Shown piece by piece: positions 27,757-58,242 of a stretch of DNA of 64,000 bases. How positions within the stretch are numbered: the stretch's first letter is position 1; each line of letters begins with the position of its first letter. Location of the stretch: assembly GCA_035294325.1 (NCBI GenBank), contig DATGLE010000066.1, forward strand, positions 32,958-96,957. The letters run 5' to 3'. Source of the stretch: Ktedonobacteraceae bacterium (GTDB lineage: Bacteria; Chloroflexota; Ktedonobacteria; Ktedonobacterales; Ktedonobacteraceae). The translations under genes and the position numbers were made by a program. The notes under the pieces are model-generated. The model ran no database searches and was not told where the DNA came from. It saw nothing but the letters and a program-made list of their open reading frames with translations.

Positions 27757-28039
27757 TTTGCACACCTCGCCACCTCCGGTGACTCGCAGAGGGAGAGAGC
27801 GAGTGTCAGAGAGGCGCCGAATGGCGCCTCTCTGGCTCTCCTTAATAACTTTATGCGAAGCGCAGCAGGTGCCGAGGGATCAGAGAAAGGATGCCAGCGC
27901 ATAAAAAGATGCCTCTTCCCCGAAAAGGCCAGGGCGATTTAAAAGTCCTCTTCCGTGCGCAGCGGCGCGATGATGAGAAAAGATTGCTGATCTTGAATGG
28001 TACTGTTTATCATCGCGCCGCTGCGCGCAGTGAAGTCTC

Positions 28040-28214
28040 ATGCCGCGACTTTTCAATGGCCCGGGAAAAGGCCAGGACGATTTAATGCTCGCCAGAAGCG
28101 GGGGTCAAGGGGGCGGCCGCCCCCTTGCGGAGCGCGGGGTGTCCCCGCCCAAACTCTTCCTTTCGGGCGTGGGGTGGGGAGAGTTAAATAGCCCTGGGAA
28201 AAGGCAGGTGCCTC
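28040..28214. repeat. ~170-bp dispersed GC-rich repeat element (gcgatttaatgctcgccagaagcgggggtcaagggggcggccgcccccttgcgg...atagccctgg), copy A
   Basis: Near-identical copy at 44150-44258. Partial module (gaaaaggccagggcgatttaaaagtcc) at 27913-27940. Ends immediately before a -35 hexamer. Confidence 0.7.
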
Positions 28215-28244
28215 TTGACAGAGTTGTATCCCGGCGCTTATAAT
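28215..28244 (+). promoter_or_regulatory. consensus sigma-70 promoter (TTGACA-18-TATAAT) driving leader plus DAHP synthase
   Basis: TTGACA at 28215-28220 and TATAAT at 28239-28244, read directly. Confidence 0.55.
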
Positions 28245-28284
28245 CCCTGATGAGGTCACTCAATAAAAAAACAACGGGATAGCT

Positions 28285-28356
28285 ATGCTCAGCCATAAAA
28301 CCAGGCAACAGAATAGCAGCTTCTACTTTTATTACTGGTTTAGCCCTCCAGCATGA
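28285..28356 (+). CDS. 23-codon aromatic leader peptide MLSHKTRQQNSSFYFYYWFSPPA
   Basis: ATG at 28285 with GGGA 8 nt upstream. Seven consecutive Phe/Tyr/Trp codons at 28321-28341. Stop TGA lies inside hairpin arm A. Confidence 0.5.
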   Translation: MLSHKTRQQNSSFYFYYWFSPPA

Positions 28357-28404
28357 TGGTGGGCCTTTTGGGCTGAGCAAAAATTGACCACCAGCATGCT
28401 GGAG

Positions 28405-28435
28405 AAGCAGAGGAAATTAAACCTCTGCTTTTTTG
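28405..28435 (+). terminator. attenuator-type intrinsic terminator (gcagagg-aaattaaa-cctctgc-tttttt) 40 nt upstream of the DAHP synthase start
   Basis: 7-bp GC-rich stem, 8-nt loop, then a U6 tract. Preceded by segments A (28347-28364) and B (28388-28404), which are mutually complementary. Confidence 0.6.
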
Positions 28436-28474
28436 TTTCCCGAAATTATTAGAGAAGAGAGAGGAATTACGTTC

Positions 28475-29350
28475 ATGACTGATACGACACCGTACAAACT
28501 GGTCAGCAGGCTATTTCAACACGAGAATAGCAGCGTCCTTGTCGGCGACGCGCACGACTGTGATCCGGTCATTGTTGGCGGTACAACAGCATCTCCGGTC
28601 ATCATGGCTGGACCATGCGCTGTAGAGAGCAGAGAGCAACTGCTGGAGACAGCGTGGGCTGTGAAGCGCGCCGGCGCTCAGATCCTGCGCGGCGGCGCCT
28701 TCAAGCCGCGCACCTCACCGTACCAGTTCCAGGGACTCGGCCTCGACGGCCTGCATCTGCTCGCCGAAGCGCGCCGCGAGACCGGCCTGCCCATCGTCAC
28801 CGAGGTTATGGAGCCGGGAATGGTTGAGATTGTCGCCGAGCATGCCGACATACTACAGATTGGCAGTCGCAATATGCAGAACTTCCCCCTGCTGCGCGCA
28901 GCCGGACAACACAGCCAGCAACGGCCCGTGCTGCTCAAACGCGGGCTGGCGGCGACCATCGATGAGTGGTTACTGGCTGCGGAATACATCGTCTCCGCCG
29001 GCAATCCCAATGTCATCCTCTGCGAACGCGGCATCCGCAGCTACGACCCCCAGACGCGCAATGTCCTCGACCTCTCCTGCGTCCCCTTGCTCCACCAGCT
29101 TACCCACCTGCCGGTCATCGTTGATCCCAGTCACGGCACAGGCCGCAGCGAACTGGTACCCACCATGTCGCGCGCCAGTATCGCCGCCGGGGCCGAAGGG
29201 CTGATAATCGAAGTGCATCGCGATCCCGACAGCGCCCTCTGCGACGGGCGACAATCGATCACGCCAGCACAGTTGGCGACCATCGTGGGCGAGACGCGCG
29301 CGCTGACGCGCATCATGAGGGGAGAGGGCGATCTATCGCCCGTTGCCTAA
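28475..29350 (+). CDS. 3-deoxy-7-phosphoheptulonate (DAHP) synthase, type I-beta (AroF/KDO8PS-like fold)
   Basis: [18 protein letters not shown] and [14 protein letters not shown] are hallmark motifs of Bacillus/Thermotoga-type DAHP synthases. RBS GAGAGAGGAA. Confidence 0.85.
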
Positions 29351-29586: not shown

Positions 29587-30159
29587 ATGCCAACACGTAT
29601 TATTATTGCAGATGATGAAGCTATTCAGCGTATGGACCTGAAGGACGTGCTGTCCAAGCAGGGCTACCTCGTGATCGGGGAAGCGGGCGATGGGCAGAGC
29701 GCCGTCAATCTGGCGCGCGAACTGCGGCCAGATCTGGTTATGATGGACATCCGTATGCCTGACATGGATGGCATTGCCGCCGCCGAAACTCTGACGCAGG
29801 AAAAGATTGCACCAGTGTTGCTGCTGACCGCTTTCGGAGACCAGCCCCTTGTTGAACGGGCAAAAGAGGCTGGTGTTGTTAACTATATCGTCAAGCCATT
29901 GCGCGAGAGTGAAGTTGCCCCGGCGATTGAAGTTGCTCTGGCACGGTACAACGAATTCCGCGCGATGGAGGATAAGGCGCGGACACTCTCCGAACAACTG
30001 GAGACGCGTAAGGTCGTTGAACGGGCCAAAGGACTCTTGATGGAGAAGCAGGGGCTGAGCGAACAGGAAGCCTTCCGCAAGATCCAGAAGGCCAGCATGA
30101 ACAACCGTAAATCGATGCGGGAGGTAGCTGAAGCCATCCTGTTGACCAACGAAATGTAA
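29587..30159 (+). CDS. ANTAR-domain response regulator (REC + ANTAR, AmiR/NasT-like)
   Basis: Receiver domain with Asp pocket (DDEAIQRMDL...MMDIRMPDMDG). C-terminal ANTAR helix bundle (VVERAKGLLMEKQGLSEQEAFRKIQKASMNNRKSMREVAEAIL). Confidence 0.85.
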   Translation: MPTRIIIADDEAIQRMDLKDVLSKQGYLVIGEAGDGQSAVNLARELRPDLVMMDIRMPDMDGIAAAETLTQEKIAPVLLLTAFGDQPLVERAKEAGVVNYIVKPLRESEVAPAIEVALARYNEFRAMEDKARTLSEQLETRKVVERAKGLLMEKQGLSEQEAFRKIQKASMNNRKSMREVAEAILLTNEM

Positions 30160-30267
30160 GCGGATGCGCAGGGATGTAGCAATGAAGCTGCATCCTCTTC
30201 GCCTGCTGCACGCTCGACAGGCTTTTTGGGGAGACGAGAAGGTCCTAACCTGGGATTGAGAGTGAAC

Positions 30268-31239
30268 ATGTCATCGGCGACGACTACAGAAAAGACCGTT
30301 ACTATCGTCGGCATTCGCTTCCGGCCAGCAGGGCGTATCTACTATTTTGACCCGCAGGGACAAACCTTCACCAACGGTCAGTACGTGATCGTAGAAACGG
30401 TGCGAGGAGTCGAGGCGGGGCGTGTTGTTATTGCCTCAAAAAAAGTAGCCGAGGAAGACCTGACCGATCCACTCAAACCCGTTCTGCGCCTGGCTTCCGA
30501 GGATGAACTGCGTATGATGCTCTCCTTCAAGAGCAAAGAGAAGGAAGCCCTTGTTCGCTGCGCGGAACGCATTCGCCAGCACAACCTCCCCATGAAGCTC
30601 GTAGAGTCCGAATACACCTTTGATGGCAGTCGTCTGACCTTCTATTTCACAGCGGATGAGCGCGTTGATTTTCGCGCGCTGGTCCGTGATCTTGCTGCGA
30701 CCTTTCGCACCCGCATAGAATTGCGCCAGATTGGAGCGCGCGACCAGGCAAAGTTGCAGGGCGGCGTCGGTCCATGTGGCAAAACGCTCTGCTGCAGCTC
30801 ATGGATCACCGAATTCGGCATCGTTTCGATCAAGATGGCAAAAGAGCAGGGACTCCCTCTCAACCCTGCGAAAATCTCCGGCGTCTGTGGCCGCCTGTTG
30901 TGCTGCCTCTCTTACGAAAACGATAACTACATCCGTGCCAAGCAGCAGATGCCACAGATCGGAACCATGCTCAACACGCCCAGCGGGCCGGGCAAGGTCG
31001 TCTCCATCAATGTGCCGCGCAATTCAGTTGAGGTAATGCTGGAGAGCGGAGTCACGATCCAGATCCCGGTCAACCAGCTGGCGGAGAAGAAAAGCAGCGA
31101 GCGGTGCAGTTGTGGCAAAGAGAACTGCACCTGCGATCAGGGCGGTGGCTGCGGTACATGCTCACGAGCAGGCAACACAGGTAATCCGGGTGGTAGCAAG
31201 TGCTGTAACTCCTGTAGTTACAACAAGAAGAAATCTTGA
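30268..31239 (+). CDS. PSP1 C-terminal-domain protein (YaaT/RicT-like) with Cys-rich C-terminus
   Basis: N-terminus VGIRFRPAGRIYYFD is typical of the YaaT family. C-terminal CSCGKENCTCDQGGGCGTCS...CCNSCS Cys cluster. Confidence 0.8.
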   Translation: MSSATTTEKTVTIVGIRFRPAGRIYYFDPQGQTFTNGQYVIVETVRGVEAGRVVIASKKVAEEDLTDPLKPVLRLASEDELRMMLSFKSKEKEALVRCAERIRQHNLPMKLVESEYTFDGSRLTFYFTADERVDFRALVRDLAATFRTRIELRQIGARDQAKLQGGVGPCGKTLCCSSWITEFGIVSIKMAKEQGLPLNPAKISGVCGRLLCCLSYENDNYIRAKQQMPQIGTMLNTPSGPGKVVSINVPRNSVEVMLESGVTIQIPVNQLAEKKSSERCSCGKENCTCDQGGGCGTCSRAGNTGNPGGSKCCNSCSYNKKKS

Positions 31240-32744
31240 ACGAGAGGAAGGTATGTATGTCGTCTGACGGGAAGGAGCCGGGAGCCACATGGCAGGGGCC
31301 TGAGCAATCGGGCTGGCGCCGGTCTTTCGACCAGGAGGCGCAGGACGATCTACCAGCGCTCTCCGAGCAGCAGCGACAGGAAGAGGTGCTGCAATGGCAC
31401 ACCCCTGTGGCAGCGGAGGAGGACGAGCCGTATGCGGAGAGCGCAGAGGTAGCTTCGCCTCCCCCCGGCCTGCTGAGCCAGTTCAAGCAATATTTCACGC
31501 TCATGGTGGTGCCGCTGCTCTTCGGCGCACTTACCTGCCTGTTTGTCCTGCCGCTGGTGGCGACAGGACGCGCCCAGATCCCCTCGACGGGACTCTGGCT
31601 GGTAACGCTCGTCATTATTCTTATTGTGATAGCACAGGCCATCGCCATCTATTATGCTGGCGAGAATACCGGTCTGTGGGTGCTTACGACTGTGGGCGGC
31701 TTTTTCCTCTTCTTGCTGGTCGGCTGTTTTACCATCTTCGGCCTGACGCCGGGCATTACGCTTTTCGTGATCCTGGTCGCAATCTCCGTGGCTCTGGGTC
31801 GCCTCTACATCCGCTCCGTCCCCCAGGGCTACGTTGATCTCGTCTATACCTTTGGCAAGTACAGCCGCACCCTTTATCCCGGCTTCAACGTCCTTTTTCC
31901 CTGGGAAAAGGTGCGCCAGCACCTGCATGTGGAAGAAATACAATGGCTCTGCCCGGCGCAGAGGGTGCAGATGTCACGCGACGAGGACCTTATTCTGCGC
32001 GCGATCATCTCGTACCGCCTGCTCCCCGAAGATGCTCACCTGGCCGCGACCCAGGTTGACCACTGGGAAGAGCGCCTGCGCGAACTCTTCAAGACGGCCC
32101 TCCAGAGTATTGCCACGACCTTCACGCCCGACGATTTCATCCCCTGGCCGCATGGCCTGCATCAAGATACAACCGATACCACGCCGCGCTGGGAACGTGT
32201 GAATACCTACCTGCTCCACTATATGCAGGACCGCGTTGCGCTCTGGGGCGTGCAGATCAACCGGGTTCAGATACGCGATATCACGCTCGCTCCGCATGAT
32301 ACCTTTATGAGCGACACAGAACCGCTCAAGGAGCCGCCAATGCCGGATAGCAAGCCACCCTCACCCCCGGAGGTCTCCAGGCCCAGAGAACCCGAGCCGG
32401 TGCATCCGGTTCCTGCCCGTCAGCCCATGCCTGACAACGCCGTTCCGCCAGCCGAGCCGATCAAAGAAGAGGTGCTTATCAAGGCGTATAAAGAAGTGCA
32501 GAACGGCAATGTTACCGATCCCGAGACGATCCGCCGCCTGGCCCTGAAATTCGATGCCATTGCCAGAGATCCGCATGCCAGCCAGACCGTGAGCTTCGAT
32601 GCCGCGCGCGCCGCCCTTAACCTCTACCGTCAGGCCACCAGATACGAAGAGATATCCGGTGAGCAGGGCTTCCACGACGAGGCGACAAAGCCAGATTGGA
32701 GCATGCGCCGCGCCAGCGATGAAAACCTCATGGCCGGAGGATAA
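31236..32744 (+). CDS. SPFH/band-7 domain membrane protein with long disordered Pro-rich C-terminus
   Basis: Four TM helices, then an SPFH-like core (VDLVYTFGKYSRTLYPGFNVLFPWEKV ... QVDHWEERLRELFKTALQ). Start overlaps the PSP1 stop. The alternative start MSSDGKEP at 31257 is possible. Confidence 0.6.
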   Translation: MNERKVCMSSDGKEPGATWQGPEQSGWRRSFDQEAQDDLPALSEQQRQEEVLQWHTPVAAEEDEPYAESAEVASPPPGLLSQFKQYFTLMVVPLLFGALTCLFVLPLVATGRAQIPSTGLWLVTLVIILIVIAQAIAIYYAGENTGLWVLTTVGGFFLFLLVGCFTIFGLTPGITLFVILVAISVALGRLYIRSVPQGYVDLVYTFGKYSRTLYPGFNVLFPWEKVRQHLHVEEIQWLCPAQRVQMSRDEDLILRAIISYRLLPEDAHLAATQVDHWEERLRELFKTALQSIATTFTPDDFIPWPHGLHQDTTDTTPRWERVNTYLLHYMQDRVALWGVQINRVQIRDITLAPHDTFMSDTEPLKEPPMPDSKPPSPPEVSRPREPEPVHPVPARQPMPDNAVPPAEPIKEEVLIKAYKEVQNGNVTDPETIRRLALKFDAIARDPHASQTVSFDAARAALNLYRQATRYEEISGEQGFHDEATKPDWSMRRASDENLMAGG

Positions 32745-57986: not shown

Positions 57987-58080
57987 GATGTGCCCGGTTT
58001 TAAATATCAGTGGTGAAACTGTTGACAAACCGCCAAAGCTATGATATCTTAGTAACGCAAACCGGATATGACAGTTTAAG

Positions 58081-58155
58081 CGGGAGTGGCTCAGTGGTAG
58101 AGCGCTTCCTTGCCAAGGAAGATGTCGCGGGTTCGAATCCCGTCTCCCGCTCCAT
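58081..58155 (+). tRNA. tRNA-Gly (GCC)
   Basis: Cloverleaf readable directly: acceptor gcgggag/ctcccgc, anticodon loop ttGCCaa, T-loop ggttcgaatcc, encoded CCA. Confidence 0.9.
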
Positions 58156-58168
58156 TGCCCCATTCAAG

Positions 58169-58242
58169 GCGACGTAGCCAAGTGGTAAGGCACGGCTCTG
58201 CAAAAGCTGCACCAGCGGTTCGAATCCGCTCGTCGCCTCCAG
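58169..58242 (+). tRNA. tRNA-Cys (GCA)
   Basis: Acceptor ggcgacg/cgtcgcc, anticodon loop ctGCAaa, T-loop ggttcgaatcc, encoded CCA. Confidence 0.9.

Follow-up and report, generated by a model that had tools for sequence, protein, structure and literature searches.

The DNA considered here is a stretch of 64,000 nucleotides (nt) from the genome of a Ktedonobacteraceae bacterium (Chloroflexota), hereafter the window, and all coordinates refer to its full length. Its plus strand carries a gene for 3-deoxy-7-phosphoheptulonate (DAHP) synthase, preceded by a leader region with a promoter, a short open reading frame (ORF) rich in aromatic codons, a long RNA helix and an intrinsic terminator. Judged from its sequence and its relatives, this leader probably controls the DAHP synthase gene by ribosome-mediated transcription attenuation and raises its expression when aromatic amino acids are scarce. 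The features of the locus are as follows.

28215..28244, + strand: sigma-70-type promoter, TTGACA (28215-28220), 18-nt spacer, TATAAT (28239-28244), 12 of 12 positions matched
28276..28279, + strand: GGGA, possible Shine-Dalgarno sequence of the leader ORF, 5 nt upstream of its AUG, as read from the sequence
28285..28356, + strand: leader ORF1, 23 codons, MLSHKTRQQNSSFYFYYWFSPPA, stop UGA at 28354-28356
28286..28294, + strand: segment S, UGCUCAGCC, spanning the leader start codon and able to form 8-9 base pairs (bp) with segment Y (28371-28379)
28321..28341, + strand: seven-codon aromatic run UUC UAC UUU UAU UAC UGG UUU, the presumed sensor codons, as read from the sequence
28346..28362, + strand: helix arm A (RNAfold), holding the ORF1 stop and the ORF2 start
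28353..28376, + strand: ORF2, MMVGLLG and stop; starts at an AUG that shares bases with the ORF1 stop (AUGA) and reads into the apical loop, where it stops 30 nt upstream of the terminator
28371..28379, + strand: segment Y, GGCUGAGCA, in the loop between A and B, holding the ORF2 stop; partner of S or of segment X (28338-28346)
28388..28404, + strand: helix arm B (RNAfold)
28405..28438, + strand: intrinsic terminator, stem AAGCAGAGG / CCUCUGCUU, 8-nt loop, tail UUUUUUGUUU
28461..28464, + strand: GAGG, probable Shine-Dalgarno sequence of the DAHP synthase gene, as read from the sequence
28475..29350, + strand: DAHP synthase, type I-beta, catalytic core only (PF00793, NF006421, TIGR01361)

Several of these features had been proposed in an earlier sequence-only reading of this DNA. 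We could confirm the perfect promoter, the 23-codon ORF with seven consecutive aromatic codons, its stop inside arm A, the hairpin with its U-run that abuts B and lies 40 nt before the start codon, and the identity of the downstream gene as a DAHP synthase, the last by three profile matches (PF00793, NF006421, TIGR01361). The pairing of A with B and the position of B were also right, while segment A, given as 28347-28364, was one base off (the string quoted for it occupies 28346-28363). In the RNAfold structure, the helix consists of two stretches, 28346-28355 against 28395-28404 and 28357-28362 against 28388-28393, separated by a single A/G mismatch; it totals 16 bp and has an energy of about -31 kcal/mol. 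The terminator hairpin has arms at 28405-28413 and 28422-28430 and a loop at 28414-28421, with a predicted energy of -13.5 kcal/mol (RNAfold), and is followed by the U-run, a G and UUU up to 28438. A simple terminator scan skipped this hairpin despite its apparent fit to the rules of the scan; RNAfold finds it. The leader as a whole is more stable than its own shuffles (z = -4.3 and -4.7). Three features had no place in the earlier reading: the overlapping ORF2, the S:Y pairing over the leader start codon and the missing N-terminal regulatory domain of the enzyme.

The promoter is the sole 12-of-12 match in the 18 kb scanned, and TTGACA-N17/18-TATAAT likewise lies 5' of the leader at related loci; a start of transcription from 28215-28244 is well supported by these signals. 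By eye, we found no plausible -35/-10 pair of a separate DAHP synthase promoter in the interval that separates the terminator from the gene. The gap from the end of the U-run to the ATG at 28475 is 40 nt here and about 35-45 nt in many relatives, and the absence of a promoter is judged on this spacing. From the layout it is also well supported that the sole polymerase route to the DAHP synthase gene would pass through the terminator at 28405-28438. Within the 64 kb, this leader is the only small ORF with at least five aromatic residues in seven that is followed by a hairpin and a T-run, and no further copies of it were found in the window. An Rfam 15 scan of the window returned only two tRNAs at gathering thresholds and no leader family, T-box or riboswitch; with E-values up to 10, the region 28150-28520 gave four weak matches, all to unrelated families. 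We rejected a T-box, a riboswitch or a known leader family as candidates on this ground.

Two samples show how far the leader extends beyond the window. The genome sample comprised 80 loci anchored on the enzyme protein, with 22 leaders detected by their aromatic ORF, without use of the stem sequence; the metagenome sample comprised loci picked by the terminator sequence, with at least 119 matches. The leader is present in 38 of the 80 protein-anchored loci and in all 15 of the closest, and the 38 include high-GC (guanine plus cytosine) Chloroflexota, namely Limnocylindria, Thermomicrobiales and metagenome-assembled genomes (MAGs) labelled Anaerolineae. In the metagenomes, at least about 105 leader loci lie ahead of DAHP synthase genes and, together with the genome loci, are mostly from Chloroflexota. 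The aromatic-rich ORF is thus conserved in orthologous upstream regions from both samples, which the sequence-only reading had proposed to search. Among the matches listed, a DAHP synthase gene lies at most 1.5 kb downstream in 78 of the 91 metagenome loci with at least 700 nt of downstream sequence, and 12 of 119 are hairpins with an identical stem and U-run that end unrelated genes (including L091, L092 and L186). Altogether, leader and terminator are conserved at about 150 loci, 5' of DAHP synthase genes and of two kinds of operon: at L003 (1674-2736) the leader heads a prephenate dehydrogenase-DAHP synthase (tyrA-DAHPS) operon, and at L117 the first gene after the terminator encodes an AroH-type chorismate mutase, followed by DAHP synthase (aroH-DAHPS). 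On this sequence evidence, the leader arrangement is not a product of chance.

The leader also occurs outside the Chloroflexota in two MAGs, one assigned to the Acidobacteriota (L020) and one to the 'Actinobacteria' (L023). The leader region of L023 is one indel apart from that of a Chloroflexi MAG (L022), and because only this indel separates them, mis-binning or a recent transfer is possible for L023.

The ORF1 peptide follows the pattern of a variable part, an aromatic run and x-x-P-A throughout the family. Among the Ktedonobacteraceae-type leaders (35), conservation is confined to the two ends, AUG CUC AGC at the start and aromatic run, S-P-P-A and stop at the end, with a variable middle. 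The distance between the AUG box and the SPPA box takes seven values (48, 51, 54, 57, 60, 66 and 72 nt), all of them multiples of 3, and no stop interrupts frame 0 between the boxes in any of these 35 leaders, against 16 of 35 and 35 of 35 for frames 1 and 2. At least three aromatic residues occur in the run of 114 of 125 leaders; the DAHP synthase itself is 3.4% aromatic. Because the frame is conserved, length changes come in whole codons and aromatic residues are enriched, we regard translation of ORF1 as well supported by sequence comparison.

Every leader of the family keeps the aromatic run, and its composition in Phe, Tyr and Trp differs by lineage. All three residues are present in 31 of 31 Ktedonobacteraceae-type leaders, and the high-GC leaders mostly have Phe and Tyr only (e.g., MSPTFYFRCPA); some leaders of the family have just two Phe. 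The run in the window is among the longest, with seven codons where five are usual. Such a variable aromatic make-up has the look of hunger codons. Because all Ktedonobacteraceae-type leaders carry Phe, Tyr and Trp codons, the earlier idea that one leader senses all three aromatic pools is plausible for the window. In high-GC leaders such as L032, L040 and L113, a -10 box (TACCGT or TATGGT) lies about 12 nt 5' of the AUG or GUG and there is no Shine-Dalgarno sequence, so that these leader ORFs would be almost leaderless.

With its own perfect promoter and a strong terminator that is predicted to form always, the promoter-to-terminator unit might instead be a stand-alone small gene, for a small protein or a small RNA (sRNA), with DAHP synthase expressed by constitutive leak; attenuator-derived sRNAs and leader peptides with functions in trans do exist (peTrpL/rnTrpL). 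This is highly improbable in view of the strict linkage and co-orientation of the unit with aromatic biosynthesis genes in three operon contexts, the conserved geometry of aromatic run, A:B and terminator, and the lack of visible room for a promoter between terminator and gene. Moreover, the N-terminal two thirds of the leader peptide are not conserved. Because the leader is conserved before DAHP synthase, its frame is kept and its aromatic run is always kept, attenuation is well supported, and we think it likely from these comparisons that the leader peptide and the terminator together control the DAHP synthase gene.

The helix next to the terminator is a second conserved feature of the family. 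Structure prediction gives 112 of 125 distinct leaders a closing helix that corresponds to A:B, versus 26% of shuffles, with a mean minimum free energy (MFE) z of -5.2, and its sequence is wholly different among lineages (CUCCAGCAUGAUGGUGG, GCCCGGCAUGA, UCGCGGCUUGGGCG and others). Within the Ktedonobacteraceae type, 97.5% of the A:B cells are paired and two pairs show compensatory changes; for S:Y, A:B and the terminator taken together the figure is 96.1%, versus 29-53% for slid controls. The last aromatic codon is followed after 1-8 nt by the 5' arm of the helix, which contains the ORF stop at a depth of 7-14 nt. In 123 of 129 distinct leaders, the 3' end of arm B falls 0-4 nt short of the terminator. 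The S:Y pairing appears in alternative MFE structures of the window leader, and among 32 relatives, 14 changes on one side of its eight core pairs all retain a wobble pair, with a single disruption besides.

When a ribosome was modelled as a mask on the window leader (ViennaRNA), A:B had a probability (P) of 0.00 with the mask on the stop codon and of 0.41-0.99 with the mask on the first to fifth aromatic codons. In these models, the position of the ribosome selects between alternative RNA structures.

The ends of the short leaders bear on what an unstalled ribosome would do. Their stop is UGA in 103 of 105, and it overlaps an AUG (AUGA) in 97 of 105. In the frame of this AUG, the next stop lies 23-36 nt 5' of the terminator in 83 of 105 leaders, against 6 of 105 for a control frame. 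The resulting ORF2 peptides have 5-7 codons and are diverse (the high-GC type alone has more than 37), and their stops sit in apical-loop motifs of differing sequence. Twenty further leaders have one long ORF instead, ending 23-37 nt 5' of the terminator. Either an ORF2 stop or a long-ORF stop is thus found 23-37 nt upstream of the terminator in 103 of 125 leaders, which means that in about 82% of them an unstalled ribosome would end in the apical loop of A:B. We infer from these positions that ORF2 is translated and that an unstalled ribosome would cover arm A and leave arm B bare.

The same conserved end invites another explanation, namely an arrest peptide of the TnaC kind. Here a free aromatic amino acid would inhibit release at Pro-Ala-UGA and the ribosome would stay on arm A, leading to termination, whereas at low amino acid it would exit quickly and A:B would form. 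The nearly constant UGA fits this model, as does the last aromatic residue at -5 in most short leaders ([FYW]-x-x-P-A-UGA), and the Ala codon is synonymously variable by lineage (GCA, GCU, GCC, GCG), hinting at selection on the peptide. The pattern is broken, however, by the 20 long-ORF leaders, where the P-A motif is read through for about ten more codons, by L006 and L053, which have lost the UGA, and by L077, which stops right after the aromatic run and keeps the RNA box. Because every nucleotide of the S-P-P-A codons takes part in A:B or X:Y pairing, constraints on the RNA can explain most of the S-P-P-A conservation, and the free variation in number and kind of aromatic residues is expected of hunger codons, not of a ligand pocket. 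An arrest peptide is therefore quite improbable.

Attenuation by stalling at the aromatic codons could proceed as follows. With Phe-, Tyr- and Trp-tRNAs plentiful, the ribosome would enter arm A, stop at the UGA within A, probably restart at the overlapping AUG, translate the seven-codon ORF2 and end in the apical loop about 30 nt 5' of the terminator. Arm A would then be covered and arm B single-stranded, and the terminator would work and end transcription. When an aromatic aminoacyl-tRNA is scarce, the ribosome would stall in 28321-28341, just 5' of A, and A would pair with B as B emerges. The closed A:B helix, its base abutting the terminator, would lower termination and let the polymerase read into the DAHP synthase gene. 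We propose that closed A:B opposes termination because starvation must raise a biosynthetic enzyme and because the unstalled ribosome would keep A:B open. S:Y probably closes the leader start codon after the first ribosome and would disfavour A:B when nothing is translated.

How a stalled ribosome would prevent termination is the interesting part of this scheme. One candidate mechanism is that the rigid helix and the stalled ribosome at its base would sterically block the last terminator base pairs inside RNA polymerase. A ribosome 5 nt from a terminator has been found to lower termination from about 90% to less than 10%, with termination still at about 90% when the ribosome is 28 nt away (PMC4824070). 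With A:B closed, the stalled ribosome would lie only a few nt from the terminator in space, and the ORF2 stop, about 30 nt away, would be just far enough not to disturb it. The other candidate is that A:B would withhold a purine-rich 5' flank that otherwise aids termination, including a conserved A at -1. Directly 5' of the hairpin, 89% of the leaders have an A and 10% a G, position -2 is a purine in 89%, and an A or G directly 5' of a terminator hairpin raises termination (bioRxiv 10.64898/2026.07.06.736697). A related idea, in which the purine flank extends the stem by pairing with the U-run, was set aside as a switch: the flank is purine-rich, the extension is not conserved in sequence, and it is a possible contributor only.

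The terminator stem (GCAG[A/G]GG / CCUCUGC) and tail UUUUUUGUUU are identical in every leader, including the 22 found by the aromatic ORF alone; the metagenome sample, selected on the terminator sequence, gives no evidence for this invariance. The stem changes only at position 5, where a G in place of the A still forms a G-U pair, and there are no compensatory changes. The loop varies in length (4-9 nt) and in sequence. A:B shares no base with the terminator core, which it merely abuts, and no antiterminator that shares a strand with the terminator and excludes it was found. Neither among the aromatic codons nor in the apical loop (as a pseudoknot) nor in arm A did we find a conserved partner for either terminator arm. 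Because the terminator core shares no base with A:B and is predicted in all states, under every ribosome mask, the trpL/pheL/hisL layout put forward in the sequence-only reading is not present.

Three candidates for a switch acting on the terminator were considered and rejected. For a classical overlapping antiterminator, no state-specific competitor emerged from ribosome masks, from forcing the terminator arms single-stranded, from truncated transcripts or from RNAduplex. The Phe-Tyr-Phe codons could pair with the terminator 5' arm, as CUUCUACUUU resembles CCUCUGCUUU at 8 of 10 positions, and this pairing is thermodynamically real in high-GC leaders; it was rejected as a switch because a stalled ribosome would cover the pairing, which inverts the logic, and because it is not universal. 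A pseudoknot between the apical loop and the terminator 5' arm (CCUUUG with CAGAGG) has modest support in the Ktedonobacteraceae type only.

Taken together, a number of observations count against the attenuator as we have drawn it. Whatever the ribosome mask, ViennaRNA predicts that the terminator forms, with P = 1.00 for the window leader and P = 0.93-0.99 for a set of 115 leaders, and the energy gained from its formation is nearly independent of state (8-10 kcal/mol mostly, 6.6-10.2 overall). RNAduplex scans gave no consistent partner for its 5' arm, and the pseudoknot reaches z = -2.0 in the Ktedonobacteraceae type versus -0.4 elsewhere. The invariance of the stem is left unexplained by the attenuator model. 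In about 20% of the short leaders, ORF2 is absent or reads through the terminator. In high-GC leaders, a stall at the first aromatic codon would leave a linker of 2-8 nt before the terminator, which weakens a purely steric model. Finally, the direction of the A:B effect rests on physiological logic. We put forward the complete wiring only tentatively, as a possible but rather doubtful model: A:B would close on a stall, set ribosome and duplex against a constitutive, invariant terminator and block its completion without competition for bases, the AUGA/ORF2 relay would keep the helix open, and the whole would be a signal of a phylum-wide aromatic regulon in Chloroflexota.

A plain hairpin requirement would allow compensatory swaps, and the stem therefore points either to a sequence-specific reader or to second partners for both of its arms. 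The first option leads to a different explanation, in which a trans-acting protein or RNA recognizes the terminator hairpin and decides on termination, the leader ORF being a second input or tuning access. Stem and tail stay the same while peptide, A:B and hairpin loop vary, no RNA partner accounts for this constancy, and RNA structure alone predicts constitutive termination, all as expected of such a factor. We nevertheless regard it as unlikely: no candidate gene accompanies the leader from lineage to lineage, the loop of 4-9 nt is unlike the targets of ANTAR or other loop-reading regulators, and the aromatic ORF with its fixed geometry to A:B would be left without a role. An ANTAR response regulator is encoded downstream of the DAHP synthase gene in the window and was rejected as antiterminator, its synteny with the leader being limited to the Ktedonobacteraceae. 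In ANTAR-regulated systems, the terminator is overlapped by a tandem pair of hairpins with hexanucleotide loops; the variable loop of the present hairpin and the linkage to ANTAR only within the Ktedonobacteraceae do not match such a target.

The hairpin might also serve mainly translational control. Its 3' arm resembles an anti-Shine-Dalgarno sequence and its 5' arm a Shine-Dalgarno sequence, so that the pyrimidine arm (CCUCU) would mask the DAHP synthase Shine-Dalgarno sequence (GAGG) unless held in the hairpin, and the aroR leader of Corynebacterium glutamicum has been termed a translational regulatory leader peptide (PMC7356990). We consider this extremely improbable, as the distance from hairpin to start codon ranges from about 30 to 190 nt, the sequence in between is not conserved, and an invariant U6-G-U3 tail marks a terminator rather than a sequestering hairpin.

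The product of 28475-29350 matches PF00793 (1.1e-78) and also TIGR01361, and it matches NF006421 only over profile positions 66-334 of 338. Searching with this enzyme assigns the DNA to the Ktedonobacteraceae, and the best relatives are 73-79% identical. The enzyme lacks the N-terminal ferredoxin-like domain PF18152 and starts directly after the point where that domain would end. In all leader-bearing relatives, DAHP synthase is extended at the N-terminus by about 65-90 residues, and this extension scores as PF18152 in L027. The ferredoxin-like domain confers feedback inhibition by Tyr and Phe on DAHP synthases of the Thermotoga type. Because the window enzyme is without this allosteric domain, it may rely on the attenuator as its main control, if the PF18152-type domain is the feedback domain.

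The genes that follow DAHP synthase in the window (29587-32744) encode the ANTAR response regulator, a PSP1-domain protein and an SPFH/Band 7 protein, in an order that only Ktedonobacteraceae relatives share. In nearly all of these relatives, identity is 90-95% for the ANTAR regulator, compared with 69-80% for DAHP synthase. Upstream of the promoter, a 21-nt direct repeat, GAAAAGGCCAGGRCGATTTAA, lies at 27922-27942 and 28065-28085, with a partial third copy at 28193-28205, just 5' of the -35 box; the copies are spaced 143 and 133 nt. A perfect 18-nt inverted repeat (27957-27974 / 28009-28026) lies between the first two copies. Two adjoining tRNA genes are found on the plus strand at 58080-58151 and 58168-58238.

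Gene regulation in the Chloroflexota is almost uncharted, and this leader, present in well over a hundred genomes and metagenome contigs, is a concrete cis-regulatory element for entry into aromatic amino acid synthesis. The family offers a test case for the idea that an intrinsic terminator may be inactivated with no competition for its base pairs, which is relevant for terminator mechanism and for the design of synthetic attenuators. Adding it to RNA-family libraries could improve annotation.

The concept is not new in itself: leader-peptide control of DAHP synthase has a precedent in aroR-aroF and a putative one in a Faecalibacterium leader, and leader-peptide attenuators as such are known from Actinobacteria. 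The aroR leader of C. glutamicum (Phe-Tyr-Phe), 5' of aroF, is described as leader-peptide control (PMC11802643 citing Neshat et al., 2014; PMC7356990), which contradicts the sequence-only reading that this mode was not known for DAHP synthases. Its view that such control would be unusual outside Proteobacteria and Firmicutes was overstated, as leader-peptide attenuators have been described in Actinobacteria (PMC1262725). For the Chloroflexota, we found no description of leader-peptide attenuation, nor of this leader family, in the literature. According to the sources consulted on aroR, the two systems share consecutive aromatic residues directly 5' of the DAHP synthase gene and increased expression when the ribosome stalls there. 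They differ in phylum and in class of DAHP synthase, and the likeness is one of description, not of compared sequences. In these sources, aroR responds to Phe but not to Tyr limitation, whereas the window leader has Phe, Tyr and Trp codons, and the second ORF, the abutting helix and the invariant terminator of the window family have no counterpart in them.

The Faecalibacterium MAG L064 (2647-2721) has a leader ORF, MKEDAGMLMARYAYYYVLYGKCRA, with five Tyr in eight residues, followed by a terminator. As in the window, an aromatic small ORF and a terminator lie directly 5' of a type I-beta DAHP synthase, here one with the ferredoxin-like domain. The sequence is unrelated and, as read from it, the leader has a classical overlapping antiterminator, in which CAGGGC at the ORF end would pair with GCCCUG of the terminator 5' arm.

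With trpL, pheL and hisL, the window leader shares a short ORF with a run of end-product codons, a stop inside a helix arm and a terminator before the structural gene. In these systems, segment 3 is common to the antiterminator (2:3) and the terminator (3:4), whereas A:B ends 0-4 nt before the terminator. In trpL, pairing over the leader start region makes translation of the leader self-limiting, and the S:Y pairing of the window resembles it. With pyrBI-type systems (PMC4824070), the common point is a ribosome near the hairpin that prevents termination, as proposed here for a ribosome stalled at the base of A:B; there the ribosome is near along the RNA chain, whereas in the window it would be near only through space, by way of A:B. 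Compared with these systems, what appears to be new is the widespread Chloroflexota family and the way it is wired, with a helix that abuts the terminator, a proposed relay of stop and restart, and a terminator of constant sequence.

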